Positions 385 to 25,954 are shown, counted from the stretch's first letter. The stretch is 64,000 nucleotides of DNA from an uncultured Pseudomonadales bacterium (GCA_964574595.1 CAZNOF010000004.1:17337-81336); one strand, 5' to 3'. The notes: generated from the letters alone by a model not told the origin. Program-made: numbers and translations.

Positions 385-1176
385 ATGACCCACAAGAAGA
401 AGTTCCAAATTCAGTTTGTCCGGGAAACGGGCATAACCACCCTGCTTTGCACCAACACTGGTGTGAAGCTCAGTCGTCGAACTATCGAAGCTGTCGATCA
501 GATCAATAATCGTTTGTTCGAGGTTGTTGAGCTCTCAGCTGGTCAATCAAAGACCTTCGATATCAGCCATATGGTTGGTCGAGTTGTGGTCAAAGTCAGC
601 GGCGTTTTCCTGATGGAAGACTTTGTTGACCCGCAAGAAGAACTGAGTCCGTTCACCATCTCGCAGGTACTCATCGGCTTGGATGGTGCCAGAACATTAC
701 TGATCACCAACAACGGGCCGACTTTGGAAGGTGAAGCAGCTACCATTAAGTTGGAGCGGATGGATGGCAGTACAATCCTAATGCGCTTCCCTACTCTAGA
801 AACAGGCAAGCCGTACTTGTTGGAAATGATTTTGATCCGTTCCAAGAAAATCGCTATCTGGATTGGCGGTCAGCTGATTGCCTACCGTGATATTGCCGAT
901 GCCGAGTTTTCTCTGAGCGCATGGTTTGACAAGCTACATCGGTATCTGATCAGCATTATCCGGATTGTAAAAGCCGTGAAGGATGAACAAGTGGCGTTAC
1001 AAATCCGGGTCTTACCCTCAACGGCGGCACCCACTCACATTCTGAGTTTCTACTATGGTGAAGAGCGGATCATTCAGGAAAATTATGCCGCGGTTGGACG
1101 AATTGTCACGGTTACCATGGATAACATTCTGGTCGCCGCTTTTACAGTTCAAGCGAATACGGATTTGATTCCGTAG
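385..1176 (+). CDS. hypothetical protein, paralog of the upstream fragment
   Basis: Long ORF with SD-like AAGAGGAAAAAA upstream. No recognisable motifs. Confidence 0.45.
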   Translation: MTHKKKFQIQFVRETGITTLLCTNTGVKLSRRTIEAVDQINNRLFEVVELSAGQSKTFDISHMVGRVVVKVSGVFLMEDFVDPQEELSPFTISQVLIGLDGARTLLITNNGPTLEGEAATIKLERMDGSTILMRFPTLETGKPYLLEMILIRSKKIAIWIGGQLIAYRDIADAEFSLSAWFDKLHRYLISIIRIVKAVKDEQVALQIRVLPSTAAPTHILSFYYGEERIIQENYAAVGRIVTVTMDNILVAAFTVQANTDLIP

Positions 1177-1301
1177 CAGTTTGCGCAGCACAGTGTCTGA
1201 AAAGTTTGAAAAGAATCCCGTCTGTTTAAGTACAGCGGGGTTCATTTGTATCAGGCCAAGAGCTACTTCCTTTTTTTAGCTCTAGGTCGCACAATGAAAA
1301 A

Positions 1302-2252
1302 ATGGCATTAACCACTAACCCCACCCAAGCTTTGATCGCTTTTCTCGAACACTTAGAAGTTGAAAGAAACGTCAGTCAACTCACTATTCGGAACTACGCC
1401 CATTACTTAAACCGCTTCAATGATTGGTTGTCGTCACAAAAAAAGTCGGATTTAAAAGAGCTCGATATGGATACTTTAAGGTCGTATAGACTCTATCTAG
1501 CTCATTTGGAAAATGAACGTGGCGAGACTTTATCGAAAAAAACACAGAGTTACCACGTGATTGCACTCAGGTCGTGGTTTAAGTGGCTCGTCAAAAATGA
1601 TCAACCAGTGCTCAATCCAGAAAAAATTGACTTACCAAAAGCTGAGTCAAAGCAAATGAAGTTTCTCAACTTAGATCAAATTGAGCGATTGCTCAGTCAG
1701 CCCGACTTAGACAAACCAAACGGTTTGCGCGATCGAGCGATTTTAGAAGTCCTCTTCTCCACCGGGTTGCGGGTAAGTGAACTCGTGTCTTTGAATCGGG
1801 ATCAGGTGGATGTACGGCGCCGAGAGTTTGGTGTAGTCGGGAAAGGTCGCCGGCCCCGTGTGGTTTTTTTGAGTGACCGCGCGGCAGACTGGTTACAAAA
1901 ATGGTTGGACTCGCGCGAAGACAATTGGCGGCCAGTCTTCATCCGCTTCTCCCAACATCATCCTGGCTTACTCGCTGATGGCGAGGAAACCCGATTGACC
2001 ACCCGGAGTGTGCAACGTTTTGTGGATGACTATTGCAGGAAAGCCAAGCTTCCAGTTAAGATTACCCCACACGGAATCCGCCACAGTTTTGCGACCGATC
2101 TCCTTTTTAATGGAGCCGGTCTTCGTGATGTTCAAGAAATGCTGGGGCACAAAAATATTGCCACCACGCAAATATACACACACGTTACGCAGCCTCAACT
2201 CAAGAAAGTGTACCAACAGTTCCACTCTGAAAAGTTAGCAGACAAGAAATAA
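1302..2252 (+). CDS. xerC: tyrosine site-specific recombinase, XerC/XerD family
   Basis: Phage-integrase core-binding N-domain. Catalytic C-terminus HGIRHSFATDLLFNGAGLRDVQEMLGHKNIATTQIYTHV carries the R..H..R..Y signature of XerC/D. Confidence 0.85.
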   Translation: MALTTNPTQALIAFLEHLEVERNVSQLTIRNYAHYLNRFNDWLSSQKKSDLKELDMDTLRSYRLYLAHLENERGETLSKKTQSYHVIALRSWFKWLVKNDQPVLNPEKIDLPKAESKQMKFLNLDQIERLLSQPDLDKPNGLRDRAILEVLFSTGLRVSELVSLNRDQVDVRRREFGVVGKGRRPRVVFLSDRAADWLQKWLDSREDNWRPVFIRFSQHHPGLLADGEETRLTTRSVQRFVDDYCRKAKLPVKITPHGIRHSFATDLLFNGAGLRDVQEMLGHKNIATTQIYTHVTQPQLKKVYQQFHSEKLADKK

Positions 2253-2554
2253 GACTGCTAAGTGCCGTTTTCTAGAATAAGTTGCGATAGATCAGTATTT
2301 TCAGCCCATATTCAGATTGAGAGATTTTTGAGAATTTTCTCTTTTAGACGAAAAACTGATCTTTTTTGATGTCTTTGTAGCACTTTTTGTACTAAATGAT
2401 TAGTAAAGTACTATTTATTCTGCAATTTCTCAAAATGTACTAGTTAAATAGGTATTTAAGTAGTTAGATCATCAATGATATAGACAATTTCTAGCAAGAC
2501 ATGATCACAATTGCCAACGTAACGCTTATGTAAAATTGGTTGGATCAGTCGAAA

Positions 2555-3334
2555 TTACAACGTTTCGTAACTTAGAGTCACAGTGTAGTTATATTGAGTG
2601 GATCCTGGTTGAATGTTGGTTGGACTGCCGCCACCACTGCCCTGGGCCACGTCTGCCGCTTTGGCCATCATTGGTACTACCATTTGACTTTGTGGAGCCT
2701 CTGTCACGTTAATGACTTTGCCTAACTGAACTCCAGACAGACGAGCTAACTCTTCTGCATTTTGGCGAGCATCTTGAATGGCTTGTTGTCTCGCTTCTTT
2801 TTGAACTTCCTTTTCTTTAGCATCACTCAAGGTAAATTGGATACCACTGATTTGATTCACACCAGCGGCGGTTGCCAGGTCCACCACCTTGTTTAACTTC
2901 TCAAAATCTTTTTCTTGAAGACTAACACTCAAGCTGATATCAACTGAGTAACCAATGATATTTTGGCCTTCCTTTTGATAATCGTAGTTTGGGTAGATGT
3001 TGTAGCTTGAAGTCTTGATGCCATCTTTACTGATACCTAAGTCAGTTAGCTGCTTGGTTAAAGAGTTGATAATGTTGTTGGCATTTGATTGAGCAGCCTT
3101 GATATCAGACTCTTTGCGAGAGATGCCTAAAGTGATTTCTGCTTTATCTGGTTGGGTGCTAATGCTGCTTTTGCCTGAGGCTACGAAGGCTTTGTCCTTT
3201 TGGACGGTTGTTTGACTGATGGAAATAGGAATTGGTGACACGTATTTACTGACGAGCACAATTGCCAGGACAGTCGCAGTGGCAATTAAAGCCGCCTGCA
3301 CAAAAAGGGTGGGAAGTTGTTTGAGGTTTAACAT
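2555..3334 (-). CDS. SIMPL-domain (DUF541, BP26-like) membrane-anchored periplasmic protein
   Basis: N-terminal TM helix. Segment ITLGISRKESDIKAAQSNANNIINSLTKQLTDLGISKDGIKTSSYNIYPNY...GYSVDISLSV is typical of the SIMPL family. AGGAGAA Shine-Dalgarno sits 5 nt upstream. Confidence 0.6.
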   Translation of the reverse strand: MLNLKQLPTLFVQAALIATATVLAIVLVSKYVSPIPISISQTTVQKDKAFVASGKSSISTQPDKAEITLGISRKESDIKAAQSNANNIINSLTKQLTDLGISKDGIKTSSYNIYPNYDYQKEGQNIIGYSVDISLSVSLQEKDFEKLNKVVDLATAAGVNQISGIQFTLSDAKEKEVQKEARQQAIQDARQNAEELARLSGVQLGKVINVTEAPQSQMVVPMMAKAADVAQGSGGGSPTNIQPGSTQYNYTVTLSYETL

Positions 3335-3419
3335 AAGTTCTCCTGTTTCTTAGTGTACTATAACCAATCCAGAAAGTCGTGGTAAAATATCTTTTATCGG
3401 TTTCAAGTAAACCAGAGAT

Positions 3420-3496
3420 GGGCCTGTAGCTCACTTGGCTAGAGCGCTGCTATGGCATAGCAGAGGTAAGGGGTTCGATTCCCCTCAGGTCCACCA
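3420..3496 (+). tRNA. tRNA-Ala (anticodon GGC), with encoded CCA
   Basis: Cloverleaf: acceptor GGGCCTG/CAGGTCC with a G3:U70 pair (the Ala identity element). Anticodon stem CTGCT/AGCAG with loop ATGGCAT. T-arm AGGGG-TTCGATT-CCCCT. 3' ACCA. Confidence 0.9.
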
Positions 3497-3538
3497 AAAT
3501 AGAACCTTCAATCAGATTTTTCCCATTCTTTTGCAGAA

Positions 3539-6523
3539 TTATCTCAGGCTTTTGCCATACTTATGGACTTCTCTAAAGTCCGGTGCTTTCAGGACTTTTT
3601 CCTTGAGGTTCGCGTACTTGTGCTTCAGTGTACCTCTATCAAACTTGGCATTTGCCAGCGTAGCAAAGATATTTAGCCAATCCGCCGGTTCCAAAATTCT
3701 GTCGTGAAGTGAAAGGATCGGATGACGCTCGTGCTTATCTTTCAGTTCAATACCAATTTTCTTAAGATACGCGGCTGCATTCTTCGAGGCCTCTTTTATT
3801 TGCTCAGTAATAAAGGCGTTAACTGCGTCAGGATCTTTCATACTGTGTCGCTCAAGGATATCAACAACTCCCTCGGGATTATTCATAATCAGCGAAGTCG
3901 CTTCAATTAAACTTTGACTATTTTCATCAACGGTTAAGTTATCAAGACTGTCCTCTACCGCTTCTTTATCGTAACCAACTACATCCGTAAGATAGTTGTA
4001 AGCCTGGAGTTTGGCTTTCTTGACGAGTTCCTCAGTGGAGTCATAGGTTAATTCGAGGTACGCGGCTTCCTCGTTAAGGAGGTCAGCTATCTTCTTTCGC
4101 TCCGTTACCTCACTAATATTGAGACGATCCGCATCCGCCACAATCAGCCGTTTCATAGCAACTTGAATCAGGCTTTTCTTTATTTCGGCAATTTTCCGAT
4201 TTTGAAAGTCAGTGGTTTCTTCATCAATTCGTTTAAACTTATCAAAATGTTCTGGGATTGCGCGTACAGCAAAGTTCTGAGGTTTATCCCACGCGCTTGG
4301 TTTCATGAACTCAACAGCCTGGGTGATGGCAGCCGTTTGTTCTGCCAGCCTCTTCTCCATCTCACCTACCACAGCATGAACTGCTGAAGTTCCTTTTGAT
4401 TCAAAGATAGTAGTTGTCAGTTTTAAGCGTGCTCTAGTGCTTTCAGTTTGAGCATTTGGATTTAACCGAGCATCGGTTTCTACATAGTTAAAGTCTTCTT
4501 CCAAGTCGTCCATCGAGTGATCTGCTAGATTCAAATGACTAACCGCTTCTGAAACCTCAGCTTGAAGCTGTGAAGTGGTATTGGAGACTAACTTGTCAAA
4601 GCGCTCCTTCCCTAAGACTGTGGCTAGGTTGTATGTCTCTGAAAATTGTTTCTGAACATAAAAAGGAATTGCTTTTACTAATGTTTGAGCTAGTACATCC
4701 GGCAAATCCTGACGGTCCATTTCAGCTATCTCTTGCCAATCACGTATCTGTTCAGTTTTGAATTTGGCAAAAACTTCTTGCGCTTTCTCAAGCAGGGTGA
4801 TTTCGGCCGAACTTTTTGGGGAAAATCGATTCCAGGTGGGCTCCATGTTGGGGTTGAACGAAGCAATCTGTGATGGCCTTAATCGATCAAACTGTTTTTT
4901 GCCATTTGTTTGAAACTCAGCCACCGCAGCTCTCAGTACCGCATACATATTTTTAATTGGTGTTTCTCGGTTCCCACTCTCAGTGTTGCTGAGAAGGATT
5001 GCTAAAAAGGAGTCAACTTTATACACTCTCTCAAGCTTTGATATGACTTCAGCTACTTTTTTAGAGATTTCTTTTTGAGGTATTTGTTCTCTTAAAAAAT
5101 CTTTTTCATTAAACAATTTGGTGGTCAGGTGTCCTAAGATGTCATTGTCGGTGACACCCACAGCTTTTAATTGCTCGGCAATTTTAAAGGTAGTGAAGTC
5201 CGTATTTAGTTGATCAACGGTACCTACATCATTCATTCTATCGACCATTATTTTGATAATCGTTCGATATTCTCTTGCTTGCTCAATAACCTTTGGGTTA
5301 GAAGTTGGTATGTTGATAATGTTGTCTAATGTCTGGATCAATTCGGATACATCTCTCTTTTGCAGAACGAGATTCTTCAATTTTTTAATCTCCTGAGCTG
5401 TTTGCTCAACGGCCTTTTTGGCAAGTTCCTGAGCTAATGTTCGGACCGCTTCGCGCACCTTAATGTCTGGAATTGCCTGTATTTTTTGAGTGGCATCTTT
5501 CTGATTAAGTATGTCTGCTTCAATCTCCATGACTTGATCAGCTAGCGCATCTTTGAAGTTATCTCTTAAGAAGTTAAACAAATCACTGAGATTGCGATCG
5601 TGGTGATTCATCAGTTTTTGAAGTTCATTGTTAAAATCTTGACGTATTCTGGCGATATCAAGGTTTGCTTTTGCCTGAGCTTTCGGAAGCAGGTTCTTTG
5701 TGGCCTGACGGATGATTGGGTTTTCGATGGCCGCGATCTGCTCCTGAATGAGTTCGGCGGTGGTGTCTTCTTCCCTGAGTCTGATAAGTAAGTTCGTGAG
5801 AATGTTCAAGTCATTGATCAATCCGTATTCACGATACTTTTGTTCCATCATTCGAATCACATTATCAAGATCATCTGTCTCGTTAGAAATATTTTGAAAG
5901 AAATATTCTTTTTGTTTTTCAATTCTTGCTTCTCCGGTGGGCAAACGTTTCAAGATAGCCTGTGAGACCTCAAGAACATCAGGATGTTGAAACGCCAGAG
6001 AGTGCTCAGAGATGTTCTTGCCATTGGCAAAGTCGGTTTGCAGTAGCTCAGCTTGGTGCCAGTCCGAAATGTATTGAGGGAATTTTTTTTGAAGTTGATA
6101 TAGCGCAGTAACAAGTGGTTGGAAGTCTACTACGCTGGAGTCTTTCCGCAACCTCCGTACTTTATCAATCTGGTTAAATTCAGCAAGTTTTTCACCTAAA
6201 ATTCGAGCTAGATTGTTTATGGCAGTATATAGTTGACCGCCCTCAGGTGTATTGATTAACAAGCTGAGTGGTTCAAGATCAGTGATGGCCGCAATCGCTG
6301 CCTTCTTAACCATTTCAGCGGGTGTACTGTCAGGTAGGCCAAGCATCTGCGTAAGTGACAATCGCTCATCCCCAACACTGCGGAATTTCTTAAGGAGCTC
6401 TACTCCCAGCGAAAGTTGACCAGATCTTGTCTCACGACGCGTGTCTTTTACGGGAGCTTCGGCACCATCGGCTTGAGGCTTATTGGCAGCCGCATCAGTT
6501 TTTCTAATATTCGATTCATTCAT
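3539..6523 (-). CDS. large (994 aa) hydrophilic, predicted coiled-coil-rich hypothetical protein; no signal peptide
   Basis: Uninterrupted 2985-nt ORF, E/K/L/Q-rich, no recognisable catalytic motifs. The start region is homologous to the start of the 8169..10097 gene (see findings). Confidence 0.5.
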   Translation of the reverse strand: MNESNIRKTDAAANKPQADGAEAPVKDTRRETRSGQLSLGVELLKKFRSVGDERLSLTQMLGLPDSTPAEMVKKAAIAAITDLEPLSLLINTPEGGQLYTAINNLARILGEKLAEFNQIDKVRRLRKDSSVVDFQPLVTALYQLQKKFPQYISDWHQAELLQTDFANGKNISEHSLAFQHPDVLEVSQAILKRLPTGEARIEKQKEYFFQNISNETDDLDNVIRMMEQKYREYGLINDLNILTNLLIRLREEDTTAELIQEQIAAIENPIIRQATKNLLPKAQAKANLDIARIRQDFNNELQKLMNHHDRNLSDLFNFLRDNFKDALADQVMEIEADILNQKDATQKIQAIPDIKVREAVRTLAQELAKKAVEQTAQEIKKLKNLVLQKRDVSELIQTLDNIINIPTSNPKVIEQAREYRTIIKIMVDRMNDVGTVDQLNTDFTTFKIAEQLKAVGVTDNDILGHLTTKLFNEKDFLREQIPQKEISKKVAEVISKLERVYKVDSFLAILLSNTESGNRETPIKNMYAVLRAAVAEFQTNGKKQFDRLRPSQIASFNPNMEPTWNRFSPKSSAEITLLEKAQEVFAKFKTEQIRDWQEIAEMDRQDLPDVLAQTLVKAIPFYVQKQFSETYNLATVLGKERFDKLVSNTTSQLQAEVSEAVSHLNLADHSMDDLEEDFNYVETDARLNPNAQTESTRARLKLTTTIFESKGTSAVHAVVGEMEKRLAEQTAAITQAVEFMKPSAWDKPQNFAVRAIPEHFDKFKRIDEETTDFQNRKIAEIKKSLIQVAMKRLIVADADRLNISEVTERKKIADLLNEEAAYLELTYDSTEELVKKAKLQAYNYLTDVVGYDKEAVEDSLDNLTVDENSQSLIEATSLIMNNPEGVVDILERHSMKDPDAVNAFITEQIKEASKNAAAYLKKIGIELKDKHERHPILSLHDRILEPADWLNIFATLANAKFDRGTLKHKYANLKEKVLKAPDFREVHKYGKSLR

Positions 6524-19427: not shown

Positions 19428-20120
19428 TCAAACGGCTTTAAACTGAAACAATAAATTCTCAAGAACTAGCCGAGTATTCACGTTTTTATTGAGGTAATCA
19501 ATTGAAACGAGTGTCTGCTGGAGCAGTTTCACATTTTTGCCGCTGGGTGTACGCATATTAACGCTGTGGAGTTCAACAAGCAACTCTTTCAAAAAGTCAT
19601 TGGCTTCTGTTTTTTCTTTATATTTGCCAGCCATTTCCATCAAATCTGTATATGAAGCCGAGCTAAATGTATCAAGATGAGCTGTGGCAGTTTTGCTAGC
19701 GCCTTTGTCAAGTTCAATGGCTGAGCACCTCGATAAAATGGTGGGTAGAACGCGCTGAATATTCGATGTAGTTAGGATGAATTGAACGTGAGCCGGCGGT
19801 TCTTCCAATGATTTTAAGAGGGCATTTTGAGCTGGAACAGATGCCAGTTCAATCTTACAAATGACGAAAATAGCCTGTTTGGCCTCCCCCATTCCTTCGT
19901 ACGGCCGCATCACCATTTCTCCACCCATGTCTCTGACCTGCTCAATAGACATCGCCCCAAATTCTTCAGGAACAGTATCTGGATTTAACCAGTGCAGATC
20001 TGGATTTTTCAATAGATCATGCTCAGAAAGATTGTATTTTTTTGCCAAAAACGCCGTCACCTGACTCACATGAGAGGCAGAATCATTACATTGCAGAAGA
20101 AGCGAGATATTCGATGGCAT
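19428..20120 (-). CDS. holB: DNA polymerase III delta-prime subunit-like, short form lacking a P-loop
   Basis: NALLKSLEEPP...FILTT...LPTILSRC matches the sensor-1 and SRC motifs of clamp-loader delta'. No Walker A. Confidence 0.6.
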   Translation of the reverse strand: MPSNISLLLQCNDSASHVSQVTAFLAKKYNLSEHDLLKNPDLHWLNPDTVPEEFGAMSIEQVRDMGGEMVMRPYEGMGEAKQAIFVICKIELASVPAQNALLKSLEEPPAHVQFILTTSNIQRVLPTILSRCSAIELDKGASKTATAHLDTFSSASYTDLMEMAGKYKEKTEANDFLKELLVELHSVNMRTPSGKNVKLLQQTLVSIDYLNKNVNTRLVLENLLFQFKAV

Positions 20121-20173
20121 TGGATAGTCAAAGTATACAGTAGGAGAAAGACGAGAGGAGGTATAATTAGTGG

Positions 20174-20623
20174 ATGAAACTGAATCAGATTCTTAACAAA
20201 AGGTATGAAAGTGTGATTCTGGATAGGGTTTTGGATTTTATAAAGAATCTTCTCGAAAACTTCATAATTTACGCATTGCTGACTTTTGCAATTAAATTAT
20301 TTTTAATCATTAATTTCTTGAGTTCCATATTTACCATAAGCTACTTTTCAGTTGCTTTTTATCTTGGAGATTTTATAGAGAATTTTTATTACTTAACACT
20401 TTTTACTTTATTTTTAATTCCAATAGTGGATGTCCCACTGTTCTCGTTGGTCTATCTTCATAACAGTAAAAAAGAAAGAACCGTTAAAAATTGGTTACTG
20501 GCTTTTATTGCTGGTTTAATTGGGGGTGTATTGGTAATTTTTCTTACTATTGTAGTTTTATACCTTTTGGTTCAACTTTTATTGTCGGGATATTTGAAAA
20601 CATCTTACCAATTAACTAAGTAA
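20174..20623 (+). CDS. small integral membrane protein, paralog 1 of 3
   Basis: 3-4 predicted TM helices. Conserved block YLTLFTLFLIPIVDVPLFSLVYLHNSKK....LLAFIAGLIGGVLVIF is shared with the next two ORFs. Confidence 0.5.
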   Translation: MKLNQILNKRYESVILDRVLDFIKNLLENFIIYALLTFAIKLFLIINFLSSIFTISYFSVAFYLGDFIENFYYLTLFTLFLIPIVDVPLFSLVYLHNSKKERTVKNWLLAFIAGLIGGVLVIFLTIVVLYLLVQLLLSGYLKTSYQLTK

Positions 20624-20658
20624 GAACAGGATATGCATCTGCTATATCATTTTTTAAA

Positions 20659-21027
20659 GTGTTGTCCGAATATCTAAAGAGAGGTTTCTTTATTTTTCTG
20701 ATCTGCAGAATCTTATTAATTATAATAGTCGCGGGTCTGTTCGGATCAAACGTTTTTGATAATGTTCATTTATTTGGTGATTTCCTACTGGATATTTATT
20801 ATTTGGTTCTTTTTTCCTTAGTTCTAGTTCCATTGTTAGATGTTCCATTTTTTAGCTATCTGTTTTTTAAAACCAGTAAGCCAAATCGATTAGGGCATGT
20901 TCTACTGGCAGTTATGCAGGGAGTTTTAGCTGGATTATTGGTTGTAGTCATAACAATAGTTATTAATCTTGTTACGAGTTATATTATTAGTCCGACTTTT
21001 TTTCCACATACCTTTACGGGATCTTAA
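20659..21027 (+). CDS. small integral membrane protein, paralog 2 of 3
   Basis: YLVLFSLVLVPLLDVPFFSYLFFKTSKPNRLGHVLLAVMQGVLAGLLVVV is homologous to paralog 1. A hairpin terminator lies at about 21035..21060. Confidence 0.5.
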   Translation: MLSEYLKRGFFIFLICRILLIIIVAGLFGSNVFDNVHLFGDFLLDIYYLVLFSLVLVPLLDVPFFSYLFFKTSKPNRLGHVLLAVMQGVLAGLLVVVITIVINLVTSYIISPTFFPHTFTGS

Positions 21028-21054
21028 AAAAATAGGGCGCTCTTTTAAAGAACG

Positions 21055-21140
21055 CCCTTTAACTTCGATCACGTTGAATACTGAGTTTTGCTCCATCTGA
21101 AAAGACAAGCTTGCACTAGCACTTGGGCCTGACCGAGTTG
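21055..21140 (-). pseudogene. decayed roughly 80-nt fragment of the SH3b-repeat gene
   Basis: About 85% nt identity to 22318..22400 and 22638..22720 inside the 21632..23551 CDS. A 2-nt deletion and an in-frame TAG are present relative to the intact copies. Confidence 0.45.
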
Positions 21141-21164
21141 TTAATCGTTTTATGAATAAGAACC

Positions 21165-21548
21165 GTGCTAAAATTAGTTATGAACATAAGCAAAAAAATT
21201 GAGTCAAGTAAGTTTAAATATTCTATTTACGGCGCTTTGGCCACATATCTAGCAATCATTTTTAAAATAGTGATTTTCTTACTAGTAGGTGGAATATTTA
21301 ATCTAACTGTACTAATTAAGCCCTTTTATATGGCACTGACTTTTGCTGCTTATTTCTATTGGTGGATTTCACTTCCTGCTGTATTTTCTACTGTTTTTAC
21401 AGTAATTAAGGAAAAAAAATCTAAACTTTTATTTAAAAACATTATTTTTAATGCATTTTTTGCTGTTCTCTTTACGCTTCTTGCGGGGACAATCTTATTC
21501 GTTATAGGAATGATTCCAGTGCTTCTAGTCCCAGGATTTAGTCCGTAA
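21165..21548 (+). CDS. small integral membrane protein, paralog 3 of 3
   Basis: Four hydrophobic helices with the same organisation as paralogs 1 and 2. Confidence 0.45.
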   Translation: MLKLVMNISKKIESSKFKYSIYGALATYLAIIFKIVIFLLVGGIFNLTVLIKPFYMALTFAAYFYWWISLPAVFSTVFTVIKEKKSKLLFKNIIFNAFFAVLFTLLAGTILFVIGMIPVLLVPGFSP

Positions 21549-21555
21549 TTTATAT

Positions 21556-21584
21556 AGGAGGCGTTTGATAATCAAACGCCTCCT
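21556..21584. terminator. bidirectional intrinsic terminator between convergent genes
   Basis: Perfect 13-bp stem AGGAGGCGTTTGA-taa-TCAAACGCCTCCT. Confidence 0.6.
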
Positions 21585-21631
21585 AATGAGGTAAACCTCC
21601 TTAAAAAGAAAGACGAATGCTGACGTTACCG

Positions 21632-23551
21632 TTAATATAGCCCTTGAGTTCGTGCAACATCATCCAGATTAGATATACTCAAGCTGAGTTTGCTTAAAGC
21701 TAACCCAACATTTCTCTGTGCAATATCATCTGGATTATCTGTGAATCTCCAACCCTCATGGGCTTGCAAAGATGCAAGTGTTTGATCCGTGTTGGCAATT
21801 CCATTTTGCCAGTAAATGTTGATTCCAAGATCAGTCATAAAATAGCCATAGGCTATATTGCCTACCCCAGAAAGATCCATAACCTTGGTTCCAACTGAGT
21901 AACGTATTCTGGATTTGCAGCTGTCAAACCCATGAATGCTTTGTTTACAGACTGCGTTGACTACTATGTCCTTGTTTTTATTGGAATCTCCTCCTATAGG
22001 GACAGCATAGAAGTAAAAAATCGTTCGCTGCACATCCATGTTCTGCCCGCTCAGTTTATTCTTCAATTTCTGAAGTTCATTGACCGTAAATTCATCTCCG
22101 TTAACGATTAATTCGTTTGCGGAGTCGTAAACAAAATTGAACCATGATCCATCAACTACCTGAACACTAATGATTAGGTTCTGACTTGAAGCTGACTGAC
22201 TCTGTCCCTCCCCTGCATATGCAACCCAGTTTTGGGCAGCGTTACCTTCTGCTGTCCAGCCGATTTGACCATTGTAGCTGATCTGCCACCAGCGGAATCC
22301 TTCTGCGCACTGAGGGCCACCGATCACGGTGAATACCGAGTTTTGCTCCATTTGGAAAGATAAGCTTGCACTAGCACTTGGACTGGATCGAACGTTGTTC
22401 TTTGGTCCGGGTAAAACTTTGCCAAGATTGCCGACGGCAAATGGTGCACGTGTATTACAGGCTGCTTCTGTGCTTTGGCCAGCATTACTGTTACTTGGAC
22501 CTTGTGGTTGAGAAGAACCTGATGAGCCTGAACCACGAGATACAGTTTGTATCCAGTTTGTTGAGCCATCACCTTCAGCCGTCCAACCAATTGTTCCCTT
22601 GAAGTTCACTTGCCACCAACGTAGGCCATCACTGCAAGCTGGTCCTCCGATCACGGTGAACTGACTGCCTTGTGACATCTTCGTCAGATAGATAGAACCT
22701 TTACTTGGGCCTGACCGAATGTTGTTCGGGTCTCCCGGAAGCACTACCGCTGTGTCACCAACTGAAACCAAACCACCACCACAAGATGGATCTGCATTGG
22801 AGTTGTTATTACTTCCGCTGTTTCCGCCATTGTTTTGGTTTTGATTGTTCTGATTGTTGTTCCCACTATTCGAGTTGTTGTTATTGTTATTTGAACTCCC
22901 CGAATTGGAATTGGTGTTTTCTGGCGCAACATATGTTGGTTGGGCGTTGCACGTCCAAGAATTGCGGTCACCGGCATTGTTAAGGCCGGGATATGGTAGT
23001 GCGCCACCGTATTGCCATGCACAAACTTCTTCGACTGTAAAACGGACTTCTTGATCTCCGCCTGCACAAAATAAGTCGTGTGCGTTCGCCGGATTGCCGC
23101 CAACCCGATCTAGATTTTTGCTGTTTTTACAAAAACCAGTGAAATCAGCTCCTCCTGTTTGAGGAGACTGACCCGGTGATGAGTTGCCTGATGAAATAAC
23201 GTTCACACTTTGGCATCGTTCTTCAGACTGAGCCTGCTGTTCACTCTGGCCATCGCGTTGAGCTACAGAGCAAATCGTTAAGGTGCCGAGTCCCCATTCA
23301 TTCGTCTTGATGGTGGAAGTGTGTTCCGGTCCACCAAAGTCGTTGAAATGCGGATCACTGCGCTGAGTGCCACGAATATCGAGCCAAGTTCTTGCTTGAA
23401 AGTCTGCTTTGACATACACATTGAGTATCGTGTCATCAGTGACGGTTCCGTTTGGACTGATATCAAATCGATACTCCGCCAGAACCAAACTTGCTGGTGC
23501 CAAAAGCACCGCTAACAGAAACAAGATACCGAGTCTACCAATCTTAGACAT
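21632..23551 (-). CDS. secreted modular protein: signal peptide, unknown N-domain, Asn-rich linker, two SH3b (SH3_3)-like domains, unknown C-terminal domain of about 200 aa
   Basis: Signal peptide MSKIGRLGILFLLAVLLAPASLVLA. Two copies of G..V.P.....RS.PS.....L.......FTVIGGP.C..G.RWWQ....G.IGWTAEG. Poly-Asn linker. An internal roughly 250-nt DNA repeat. Confidence 0.6.
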   Translation of the reverse strand: MSKIGRLGILFLLAVLLAPASLVLAEYRFDISPNGTVTDDTILNVYVKADFQARTWLDIRGTQRSDPHFNDFGGPEHTSTIKTNEWGLGTLTICSVAQRDGQSEQQAQSEERCQSVNVISSGNSSPGQSPQTGGADFTGFCKNSKNLDRVGGNPANAHDLFCAGGDQEVRFTVEEVCAWQYGGALPYPGLNNAGDRNSWTCNAQPTYVAPENTNSNSGSSNNNNNNSNSGNNNQNNQNQNNGGNSGSNNNSNADPSCGGGLVSVGDTAVVLPGDPNNIRSGPSKGSIYLTKMSQGSQFTVIGGPACSDGLRWWQVNFKGTIGWTAEGDGSTNWIQTVSRGSGSSGSSQPQGPSNSNAGQSTEAACNTRAPFAVGNLGKVLPGPKNNVRSSPSASASLSFQMEQNSVFTVIGGPQCAEGFRWWQISYNGQIGWTAEGNAAQNWVAYAGEGQSQSASSQNLIISVQVVDGSWFNFVYDSANELIVNGDEFTVNELQKLKNKLSGQNMDVQRTIFYFYAVPIGGDSNKNKDIVVNAVCKQSIHGFDSCKSRIRYSVGTKVMDLSGVGNIAYGYFMTDLGINIYWQNGIANTDQTLASLQAHEGWRFTDNPDDIAQRNVGLALSKLSLSISNLDDVARTQGLY

Positions 23552-23737: not shown

Positions 23738-25954
23738 TTGAAGATTGAAATTTTCCTCAAAACAGTGAAGAATGGATATATTAGTTCTATGATCGATCCT
23801 GCCCAGACACAACCAGCCCTCACCGTGCCAGTTACGCCGATGATTTCGGTGACTCCGAGTGCGCAAAATACGGCTGCTCCTGCAACTTCACCAGCGTCCA
23901 CTTCAATTCCTGAGTCCAAGCCAACTTCTTTAACTGATGCTCCAGTACCTGATTTACGAGAAACCTCCTCTCTGAATGAGCCGGCAAAATCGACAGATGC
24001 TCCTATCGAAATTCAAGCAACGTCACTCGATTCAGCGGAAGATTTGCCAGCAGGTTTATCTATGTCTCCCGCAGCCCAAAATGATCAAGCCGCGAAAGAT
24101 ACGGTGGCTGATTTACCAACCATCTCACCTGTATCTGGAGATGATGCTAAAGCCAAAGCACCTGTGCCAGAAACCTTGCCAACTATGCCGTTGGCTCCTA
24201 TGCCTGATCAACCCAGTCCAGCTTCAACCGGAAGCTCCGTTTTAGATATTCTAAAAGAACAAGGTGCTTTAACTGGTGAACAAGTTGAGAACTTGGAACT
24301 GGAAGAAGCCAATACCGGTAAACCCATTGAGACGTTATTAGAAGAAAAGAATATTGTGACTGATTCCGTGCTGACTCAAGCTCGTGCCAAACTCTACAAC
24401 TTACCGTTTGCTCAACTAGCTGAGATTGGTGTCTCTCCAGAAGCCATCAGTTTAATTCCAGAGAGTGTAGCGCATCGTTATCAAATTCTGCCTTTTATGG
24501 TCAATAAACAAGATCGTGTCTTGTCAGTGGCCATGAAGAACCCACTCGATTTGTCGGCGATTGATTTTGTGGAGAAAAAAACTGGTTATAAGATTGTGCC
24601 CTACTTTGCCACGCCACAAGAAATTGCTCAAACAATTGCCGAGCGCTACGCCCAAAATTTATCAACGGAAGTAGATGAAGCCTTAAAAGAAACCAAGTTA
24701 GCGACCAATGAACGCAATTTAGATAACTTGTCAGTTTTGTCAAAAGAGGTGATCCGAGAAGCGCCTATCACCAAGATCGTGGAAACAATTTTGGGCTATG
24801 CCGTCAAAGCTCGGGCGTCTGACGTCCACATTGAGCCACAAGAAGACAGAACCAGAATTCGGTATCGTATCGATGGTATTTTGGGCGAGAAGCTGATCTT
24901 GCCAAGATCTGTGCATGATGCCGTTCTCTCTCGCGTCAAGATTTTATCGGACATGAAAATTGACGAGAAAAGAATTCCTCAGGATGGTCGGTTTACCTTT
25001 GTGGCAGATGGTGAAGAAGTTGACTTGCGTGTCTCTACTCTGCCCACTGTCCACGGCGAAAAAGTGGTCATGCGGTTATTGAAAAAGAACGCGGCAATTC
25101 CAAGTTTGGAAGAGCTCGGAATGTGGGGGCAAGGTTTACGAGATGTCCAAGAATCAATTAAAATTCCTCACGGAATTGTGCTAATTACCGGTCCAACAGG
25201 ATCTGGAAAAACTACTACCCTGTACTCTATCTTGCACATTCTCAACACAGCCAAAGTGAACATCTCTACCCTAGAAGATCCAGTTGAGTATCAGATTCCT
25301 GGAGTCAATCAGGTTCAGATTAATCCACAAGCGGGTTTGACGTTCGCATCAGGATTACGTGCTTTCTTACGTCAGGACCCAAACATCATCATGGTGGGAG
25401 AAATTCGGGATATGGAAACGGCGGATCTGGCTATTCAGGCTTCTTTGACCGGTCACTTAGTCTTCTCTACTTTACACACCAACTCAGCTGCGGGAGCTTT
25501 ACCTCGGTTAATGGATATGGGTGCCGAGCCGTTCTTAGTGGCCTCATCATTGACACTCTCTTTGGGTCAACGTGTGGTGAGAACCTTAAACCCTGAGTAC
25601 ACCGAAGAGTACAAACCAGAACAAGTGGTGATCGATGACATTAAAAATGTGTTAGGTCCTCAATTTGCTGCCTGGTGCACCAGAAATAAAAAAGATCCAA
25701 ATGATATCCGATTATATCGTGCTAAGAAGGATCGACCATCTACTGAACCAGATTACAAAGGTCGGATGGCCATCTTTGAGGTGCTGCGAATCAATGAAGA
25801 AATTAGTACCATGATTCTTGAAAAGAAACCGGCCACAGAAATTGAGAAAGTTGCATTAAAAAATGGTATGCTTTTAATGAAGCAGGACGGTTACTTAAAA
25901 GCGTTAGAAGGAAAAACAACCATCGAAGAAGTCCTTCGTGTGGCTGACATTTAA
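23738..25954 (+). CDS. pilB: type IV pilus assembly ATPase PilB (GspE family) with an N-terminal Pro/Ser/Thr/Ala-rich extension of about 170 aa
   Basis: T2SSE_N-like domain. Walker A GPTGSGKTTTL. Asp/His boxes. MVGEIRDMETADLAIQASLTGHLVFSTLHTNSAAGA. Confidence 0.85.
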   Translation: MKIEIFLKTVKNGYISSMIDPAQTQPALTVPVTPMISVTPSAQNTAAPATSPASTSIPESKPTSLTDAPVPDLRETSSLNEPAKSTDAPIEIQATSLDSAEDLPAGLSMSPAAQNDQAAKDTVADLPTISPVSGDDAKAKAPVPETLPTMPLAPMPDQPSPASTGSSVLDILKEQGALTGEQVENLELEEANTGKPIETLLEEKNIVTDSVLTQARAKLYNLPFAQLAEIGVSPEAISLIPESVAHRYQILPFMVNKQDRVLSVAMKNPLDLSAIDFVEKKTGYKIVPYFATPQEIAQTIAERYAQNLSTEVDEALKETKLATNERNLDNLSVLSKEVIREAPITKIVETILGYAVKARASDVHIEPQEDRTRIRYRIDGILGEKLILPRSVHDAVLSRVKILSDMKIDEKRIPQDGRFTFVADGEEVDLRVSTLPTVHGEKVVMRLLKKNAAIPSLEELGMWGQGLRDVQESIKIPHGIVLITGPTGSGKTTTLYSILHILNTAKVNISTLEDPVEYQIPGVNQVQINPQAGLTFASGLRAFLRQDPNIIMVGEIRDMETADLAIQASLTGHLVFSTLHTNSAAGALPRLMDMGAEPFLVASSLTLSLGQRVVRTLNPEYTEEYKPEQVVIDDIKNVLGPQFAAWCTRNKKDPNDIRLYRAKKDRPSTEPDYKGRMAIFEVLRINEEISTMILEKKPATEIEKVALKNGMLLMKQDGYLKALEGKTTIEEVLRVADI

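Follow-up and report, generated by a model that had tools for sequence, protein, structure and literature searches.

A 64,000-nucleotide (nt) stretch of DNA from an uncultured Pseudomonadales bacterium (GCA_964574595.1 CAZNOF010000004.1:17337-81336; hereafter the window, with positions counted from its first letter), whose host genome is probably that of a member of the Patescibacteria, carries at 20174-23551 three short plus-strand genes for polytopic membrane proteins (sm1, sm2 and sm3) and, convergent to them, a gene for a 639-amino-acid (aa) secreted protein, which we call the toxin gene in keeping with the reading developed below. All four open reading frames (ORFs) were recovered at exactly the coordinates of an earlier account made without recourse to any database (the sequence-only reading), and the features of the module are as follows.

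20174-20623, plus strand: sm1 ORF, 149 aa, about three transmembrane (TM) spans, family A
20659-21027, plus strand: sm2 ORF, 122 aa, family-A membrane protein
21034-21058: hairpin between sm2 and the SH3b remnant, terminator-like with a U7 tail on the minus strand (terminator scan and folding)
21067-21171, minus strand: non-coding SH3b remnant (DNA identity and tblastn)
21165-21548, plus strand: sm3 ORF, 127 aa, about three TM spans, alternative ATG at 21180
21555-21585: hairpin between sm3 and the toxin gene, a perfect 15+15 nt inverted repeat with a 14-bp stem (folding)
21632-23551, minus strand: toxin gene ORF, 639 aa

Along the minus strand one meets in turn the toxin gene, the hairpin, sm3 (convergent), the SH3b fragment, the terminator, and then sm2 and sm1 (convergent), a layout familiar from loci in which a main toxin–immunity pair precedes an orphan cassette.

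The 639-aa protein and the family of its C-terminal domain

A full-length AlphaFold2 (AF2) model of the 639-aa protein, built from 17 homologs, had a mean predicted local distance difference test score (pLDDT) of 71, with values of 80-96 in the folded domains. Combined with sequence comparison, it divides the protein into these parts.

23477-23551, minus strand (aa 1-25, ...LVLA/EY): Sec signal peptide, by sequence; helix 4-20 in the model
23195-23473, minus strand (aa 27-119): Ig-like all-beta domain of eight strands (AF2, pLDDT 80-93)
22937-23161, minus strand (aa ~131-205): 4-Cys module, from pairwise comparison with family member P0006
After the 4-Cys module and before the SH3b domains, minus strand: poly-Asn linker
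22544-22768, minus strand (aa ~262-336): SH3b domain 1, Pfam SH3_3 in two stretches; AF2 barrel, pLDDT 81-93
22217-22438, minus strand (aa ~372-445): SH3b domain 2, Pfam SH3_3 with best stretch aa 386-433 (E 1e-14); AF2 pLDDT 83-93
21635-22186, minus strand (aa 456-639, ~185 aa): C-terminal candidate toxin domain, a beta-hairpin and eight helices (AF2)
21695-21898, minus strand (aa 552-619): Ntox44-like core, containing MDLSGVGNIAYGY, the invariant Q590 and DNPDDIAQRNVG

Exhaustive searching with HMMER over 1.84 billion representatives placed the C-terminal domain in 57 clusters at 50% identity, a word-indexed search having yielded a single homolog. In essentially all of these clusters the domain lies within a few residues of the protein C-terminus, in proteins ranging from 77 to 2077 aa, and it follows diverse N-terminal contexts (SH3_3 in 24 of 45, and also WD40-type propellers, LysM, Big_7 and RHS). 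Among them is P0015, a 2077-aa RHS protein with RHS repeats, DUF6531, a YD-shell and a LysM directly before the toxin domain. The Pfam family Ntox44 (PF15607) matched the same stretch in 15 of 37 isolated domains, with a best E of 1.6e-6; P0007 reached 26.6 bits, above the gathering threshold of 24 bits, and the window domain matched profile positions 34-101 of 104 with 16.6 bits and E 0.011. Because it is always C-terminal, also occurs on an RHS protein and is Ntox44-like, the domain is, by comparison of sequences, a predicted polymorphic-toxin module and a divergent relative of Ntox44.

The likeness extends to the motifs. In the survey of Zhang et al. (2012; PMC3482391), Ntox44 is an all-alpha domain that has the motifs DxK, GNxxxG and DxxxD, delivered through type II, type VI and type VII secretion systems (T2SS, T6SS and T7SS) and with no immunity family. 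Like Ntox44, the domain takes the C-terminal place in polymorphic toxins that begin with RHS regions or signal peptides, is mostly helical in its AF2 model, and has both GNxxxG (G564-N565-I-A-Y-G569 in the window copy, G and N being conserved in 90% or more of 37-45 sequences) and DxxxD (D605-N-P-D-D609, with D605, D608 and D609 nearly invariant). Unlike Ntox44, it has a polytopic membrane partner, and no conserved DxK is recognisable: the conserved triplet ahead of GN is D559-x-S561, and the PF15607 matches start at profile positions 26-40, leaving the DxK region outside the alignment. It also differs in an extra N-terminal subdomain of ~100 aa before the core, with a beta-hairpin, four helices and a conserved N-G-(S/A)-(E/D), the AF2 model of the whole domain comprising eight helices, a two-strand hairpin and a small beta element. 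A pair of cysteines is kept within each subfamily, which suggests a disulfide that would form outside the cell.

Upstream of this domain, Pfam and NCBIfam recognised only the two SH3_3 domains. The signal peptide, poly-Asn linker and two SH3b domains of a secreted protein, as described in the sequence-only reading, were all found, and signal peptides were read in P0003, P0005 (with a lipobox), P0006, P0007 and P0009 as well. The single N-domain of about 200 aa in that description is present as a region but actually comprises two modules, Ig-like and 4-Cys. The N-terminal 187 aa gave no match in a word-indexed search of 5.8 billion clusters; in pairwise comparison the region shares both modules with members of the toxin family, the Ig-like domain aligning to the N-terminal domain of P0003 (E 8e-7; weak Big_7 matches occur in relatives) and the 4-Cys module being 31% identical to aa 132-209 of P0006 (E 4e-6). 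The 4-Cys module has neither a Pfam match nor a confident AF2 model (pLDDT ~34). It spans ~70 aa with the pattern C...C...C...W.C, and by eye there is a second copy in P0006 and one in P0009.

A pattern for the close family retrieved three loci only in a genome scan, relatives including Ca. Woesebacteria-like metagenome-assembled genomes (MAGs), and no relatives in a metagenome scan, a viral-contig scan or a plasmid tblastn search; a second metagenome scan with a pattern for the broader subfamily retrieved 13 loci. In the locus of the RHS protein P0015 (L011), the LysM spans aa 1797-1840, so that a peptidoglycan-binding module sits inside an RHS payload; resolvase, PIN, SSB and helix-turn-helix genes at the same locus suggest a mobile element.

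Pairing with small membrane genes

At 19 of the 21 informative loci a small polytopic membrane gene (99-166 aa) lies directly 3' of the toxin gene, convergent to it in 16 and usually separated from it by 2-175 nt; the RHS toxin is among these loci, as is one from a Ca. Woesebacteria MAG. The co-occurrence of small membrane proteins with SH3b genes across relatives, which the sequence-only reading had named as the comparison to make, is thus borne out. The first set of loci consisted of close relatives and three distant ones and the second of the broader metagenome subfamily; in the latter, the partner was present at 8 of 10 informative loci and convergent in seven of those eight. Partners are as follows.

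Window, sm3: 127 aa, convergent
L001: 129 aa, convergent
L003 (Ca. Woesebacteria): 109 aa, convergent
L004: 126 aa, convergent
L006: 144 aa, convergent
L008/L009: 130 aa, convergent
L010: 133 aa, convergent
L011 (RHS toxin): 155 aa, convergent
L012: 160 aa, convergent
L013: 99 aa, same strand
L005/L014: two copies each, 128 and 120 aa (L005) and 121 and 120 aa (L014), same strand

Partners and toxin domains also tend to diverge together: the closest toxin-domain pairs (L003-L004 and L001-L006) are the closest partner pairs (z 5.8 and 6.4), and similarity between partners correlates with that between toxin domains with a Spearman rho of 0.48 over 55 pairs that are not independent. The C-terminal domain matches no housekeeping peptidoglycan-hydrolase family and is associated with the small membrane proteins, the opposite of the combined outcome that the sequence-only reading had given as speaking against it.

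Several loci show further features of the pair. In L019, an IS200-like transposase ORF (3651-4100, minus strand, 149 aa, 'KYHIVFTPKYRRK') is inserted between the toxin gene and a convergent 140-aa membrane partner. The L001 contig carries a second SH3b ORF with a different C-terminal region (1005-1721, plus strand) and a second, paralogous 127-aa membrane gene (2376-2759, minus strand) that is 40% identical to the first (E 5e-25), and these may form a second cassette with another toxin tip. The L020/L021 member (1912-3573, plus strand) has 553 aa and the same layout of Ig-like domain, SH3b domains and toxin tip; its contigs are large (217 and 493 kb) and do not look like those of Patescibacteria, and its flanking genes resemble those for an ornithine carbamoyltransferase and, with 925 aa, an oxidoreductase.

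Neighbouring genes at the related loci encode an S26 peptidase, ribosomal proteins, PGK/GAPDH, rhamnose synthesis functions and S1. The type I signal peptidase (S26) gene lies 2-3 kb from the module in two independent loci (L001 2901-3428; L003 2921-3394), and in L005 and L013 the flanking genes are those for PGK and GAPDH, in L014 that for PGK alone.

The small membrane proteins and the history of the locus

In the window, small proteins with at least three predicted TM spans are encoded by 3 of 57 ORF-genes, and all three lie inside the module (TM counts here come from a simple hydropathy scan). sm1, sm2 and sm3 are laid out alike: the N-terminus is basic, there are about three hydrophobic spans, and the last of these is preceded by a loop rich in Lys and Arg. 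None belongs to a family recognised in Pfam or NCBIfam, and PHROGs and PADLOC gave no match for any of the four module proteins. The sequence-only reading had taken the three for clear paralogs. This holds for sm1 and sm2 (39% identity over 80 aa, E 3e-16), which make up family A, but sm3 shares with them only size and topology: it has no detectable relationship to sm1 or sm2 by BLASTP (E 0.012, out of register, and E 0.69) or by hhalign (probability 0.4-1%), and the idea of sm3 as a third paralog was rejected on these comparisons. The closest partner of sm3 elsewhere is that of L010 (shuffle z 4.6), and in position, size and charge pattern sm3 resembles the 3' neighbours of the toxin at 18 other loci.

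Family A is tiny, with three clusters in a search of 5.8 billion. Relatives of sm1 are L003_112, L005_128 and L005_120 (E 1e-7 to 5e-10), and the family motif Y..L....L(I/V)P..D(V/L)P is present in sm2. All family A members found (in the window, L003, L005, L014/15 and L016) lie at most 1.5 kb from an SH3b toxin of the same toxin family. At L005 and L014 the toxin gene is succeeded on its own strand by two copies, with gaps of ~10-30 nt, in the classical order of toxin and then immunity gene. The L005 toxin domain, whose partner is of family A, belongs to a more distant subtype (28% identity to the window domain); because of this, sm1 and sm2 can be seen as protection kept against the toxins of relatives, and they fit the role of candidate orphan immunity genes.

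What lies between sm2 and sm3 bears on how this arrangement came about. DNA at 21066-21136 is 87% identical to 22321-22391 (71 nt), within the segment coding for the second SH3b domain, and at the protein level 21067-21171 (~105 nt, minus strand) matches toxin aa 376-410 with 66% identity over 35 aa (tblastn, E 7e-7), in agreement with the decayed SH3b fragment that the sequence-only reading had placed between the second and third small genes. The homology ends abruptly at the hairpin with U7 on the minus strand (21034-21058), which folds with -17.6 kcal/mol on that strand (z -4.2) and -12.8 kcal/mol on the plus strand (z -3.5). The hairpin between sm3 and the toxin gene is stronger on both strands (-27.3 and -27.9 kcal/mol, z -7.4 and -7.9) and has no clean U-tract on either; the strong terminators said to separate the units therefore correspond to two inter-unit hairpins that are indeed strong (about -27 and -17.6 kcal/mol).

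The 105-nt remnant is the mark of a lost second toxin gene, of which sm2 is the convergent partner. The sequence-only reading had supposed that a unit of one small gene and one SH3b gene was duplicated and one large gene then lost; the loss of a toxin gene stands, but a plain duplication of the unit does not, because sm2 and sm3 show no relationship, in contrast to the 87% identity of the SH3b DNA. Judged by these similarities, the locus fits two cassettes that would have shared a conserved N-terminal part of the toxin and differed in their toxin-tip/immunity pairs, one of them having lost its toxin. A toxin fragment with orphan immunity genes nearby, a feature of polymorphic toxin loci, is accordingly present here as the remnant with its own terminator beside sm2 and sm1.

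A 57-aa ORF at 20935-21108 (minus strand) is read-through of the SH3b remnant ('SFQMEQNSVF') and the terminator and almost certainly no gene. G+C is 31.6% over the small-gene block (20001-21000, covering sm1 and sm2) compared to ~44% on either side, which may stem from coding rich in Phe, Ile, Leu and Lys or from a foreign source of the immunity genes. Upstream of the module lie ppa, gyrB and a holB-like gene, and downstream, divergent from the toxin gene, pilB and pilT. The pilB start at 23738 confirms the adjacency to a divergent pilB operon reported for the window in the sequence-only reading. The encoded ATPase (23738-25954, plus strand) has a ~170-aa N-terminal extension rich in Pro, Ala, Ser and Thr before the usual GspE-type domains. 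No pilus genes were found near the toxin at any related locus inspected, and a functional link of the module to the pilus operon was rejected since the adjacency is not conserved.

A toxin–immunity reading and its alternatives

We consider it probable that the locus is a polymorphic toxin–immunity cassette. The coupling of a secreted wall-binding toxin to membrane immunity proteins, as the sequence-only reading had suggested, was supported by every comparative test run, in the family of the C-terminal domain as in the pairing at 19 of 21 loci. On this reading, the 639-aa toxin would be exported by Sec, its SH3b pair would bind peptidoglycan on the wall of the producer or of a neighbour, and its C-terminal tip, as a divergent branch of Ntox44, would be the effector; sm3, from its own transcript, would be the cognate immunity protein that neutralises it. 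Deletion of a second toxin gene would have left sm1, sm2, the 105-nt remnant and its terminator, with sm1 and sm2 now serving as orphan immunity against the toxins of relatives. D559, S561, N565, Q590, D605, D608, D609 and R613 may together form a metal-dependent site that cleaves phosphodiesters, in a membrane-proximal substrate or, if the domain is imported, in RNA.

We infer, in addition, that the cytoplasmic membrane, on its outer face or inside it, is where the toxin acts or is stopped, and not the cytoplasm, because the partners are almost wholly buried in the membrane, with almost no soluble part, because the domain is joined without a gap to wall-binding modules, in the RHS payload too, because the cysteine pairs of the subfamilies suggest an extracellular disulfide, and because in known systems immunity proteins with TM spans or lipid anchors accompany toxins that act outside the cytoplasm. 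Immunity to pore-forming colicins (Cai, Cei, Iia) is one such precedent, being provided by small polytopic proteins with 3-4 TM spans in the inner membrane whose genes follow the toxin gene on the opposite strand as their own transcript, convergent to it; the ionophoric CdiA-CT of EC93 likewise combines a membrane-acting toxin with membrane immunity. In the Lipocone toxins, to which TelC belongs, TM or lipoprotein immunity has been taken as a sign of extracytoplasmic or intramembrane action (PMC12419801), and like the window domain they are soluble and helical, acting outside the cytoplasm on lipid-linked wall precursors with immunity at the membrane. The motif spacing of the window domain misfits the active site described for them (PMC12419801), however, and assignment as a Lipocone/TelC toxin was rejected, the four-helix cone fold of the solved TelC structure being absent.

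The cassette also resembles the 'T2SS'-class SH3 toxins of monoderms (PMC3482391), with a Sec signal, wall-binding modules, a variable C-terminal toxin, adjacent immunity, and orphans with a toxin fragment; SH3 domains at the N-termini of polymorphic toxins exported by signal peptide were noted in the same study. It differs from that class in its immunity gene, which in 16 of 19 paired loci runs toward the toxin gene rather than being co-transcribed downstream, in having an integral-membrane protein for immunity, and in its apparent host lineage, the Patescibacteria. TseR of Yersinia pseudotuberculosis, the sole characterised Ntox44 protein, is unlike the window protein a T6SS PAAR effector, reported to act in the cytoplasm as a divalent-cation-dependent RNase on single-stranded RNA (review PMC13577199). 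No experimental structure was found for Ntox44, TseR included.

Several observations weigh against a toxin–immunity cassette or the parallels drawn for it. L020/L021 have no small membrane neighbour at all and L026 is ambiguous. Where a partner is present, the pairing is one of position, size and topology, with TM spans from the hydropathy scan; homology of sm3 and most positional partners to each other went undetected, hhalign reaching at best 26% between two subgroups and ~1% for the sm3 group, and a single 'family B' of convergent partners was rejected on these weak values. The window copy falls below the PF15607 threshold and is no formal Ntox44 member. By analogy with TseR, a cytoplasmic RNase would normally predict soluble cytoplasmic immunity. 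The colicin parallel, too, is incomplete: a colicin-like pore former was rejected since the domain lacks a hydrophobic helical hairpin and has no fold similarity to colicin pore domains, and unlike in those toxins its conserved polar and acidic residues look enzymatic. Toxicity and protection are candidate functions, put forward by comparison with known systems.

The TseR precedent leads to the alternative that we take most seriously, although we regard it as rather unlikely and about half as likely as action at the membrane: an RNase like TseR would cross the target membrane, and the small membrane proteins would block its uptake, for instance by occupying or capping an entry component, instead of blocking the enzyme. 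The homology of the core to Ntox44, the activity of the PAAR-Ntox44 effector TseR (PMC13577199) and a conserved acidic cluster suited to metal binding all agree with this, and a Sec-exported toxin never folds in the cytoplasm of its producer, so that stopping re-entry would suffice. The Ntox44 match is, however, limited to the last ~70 residues, with no recognisable DxK and an additional subdomain of ~100 aa, and both the peptidoglycan-binding modules fused to the domain, even in the RHS payload of P0015, and the likely extracellular disulfide of the subfamilies point away from an imported RNase. Other exported or contact-delivered nuclease toxins (Sec-exported WapA, nuclease colicins and most CdiA-CTs) moreover rely on soluble cytoplasmic immunity proteins.

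That the 639-aa protein is instead a housekeeping wall enzyme or structural protein, autolysin-like or wall-remodelling, with a membrane anchor, regulator or holin-like protein as its partner, appears improbable. SH3b domains are common in autolysins and endolysins, and small polytopic proteins beside wall enzymes recall holins, sm1 itself having a very weak Pfam match to Phage_holin_3_6 (E 0.096). Against this, a peptidoglycan hydrolase was rejected as no amidase, CHAP/NlpC-P60, M23, GH25, transglycosylase or other hydrolase or peptidase was matched in Pfam/NCBIfam (E <= 1), PHROGs, or PDB sequence and fold searches, and a holin–endolysin pair was rejected on the lack of a hydrolase family and of any PHROGs or viral-contig match; the protein has its own signal peptide and needs no holin. 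The same domain also ends an RHS protein whose gene has a resolvase and a PIN gene as neighbours. With 57 clusters in 1.84 billion representatives, the family is too rare and patchy for a housekeeping one, and the partners diverge fast and occur in tandem and as orphans, as is typical of immunity genes. Even less credible, to the point of being very improbable, is a factor with which an epibiotic member of the Patescibacteria would attach to or attack its host in concert with the neighbouring type IV pilus operon, the SH3b domains binding the host wall and the effector helping to extract host resources. The toxin gene does lie divergent from pilB/pilT, close relatives come from Ca. Woesebacteria-like MAGs, and Patescibacteria are host-dependent (PMC13622651). 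Pilus genes are nevertheless absent from all related loci inspected, and a target confined to the host would not require a dedicated self-protection gene that diverges together with the toxin.

Returning to the toxin–immunity cassette, we propose only tentatively, as a possible but doubtful extension of it, that the Ntox44-like branch is no cytoplasmic RNase but an envelope-attacking enzyme that would hit a membrane-linked or membrane-proximal target from outside and be neutralised in the membrane by a convergently encoded protein of about three TM spans. It would then be a Sec-only weapon of ultra-small Patescibacteria against competitors or hosts, and a new mechanism for Ntox44.

Polymorphic toxin systems are a known class, and the tip of this one adjoins a known Pfam family. 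New here are the consistent, mostly convergent pairing of Ntox44-like toxins, from a family assumed to consist of RNases and lacking any recorded immunity, with minimal polytopic membrane proteins, the extended domain architecture, and the presence in Patescibacteria-type genomes. Ntox44 is widespread, occurring in T6SS, T7SS and Sec-exported toxins, and has even been transferred to corals. For this family, the locus and its ~20 relatives provide testable immunity candidates that are tiny, fast-evolving and usually transcribed toward the toxin. If the partners do protect, then the site of action of this branch is the membrane and not RNA in the cytoplasm, or else immunity blocks entry, and each of these outcomes would alter the annotation of the Ntox44 family. 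Finally, Patescibacteria-type genomes, with their very small gene sets, retain polymorphic-toxin cassettes complete with orphan immunity genes, and these bacteria would therefore compete with their kin as well as exploit their hosts.

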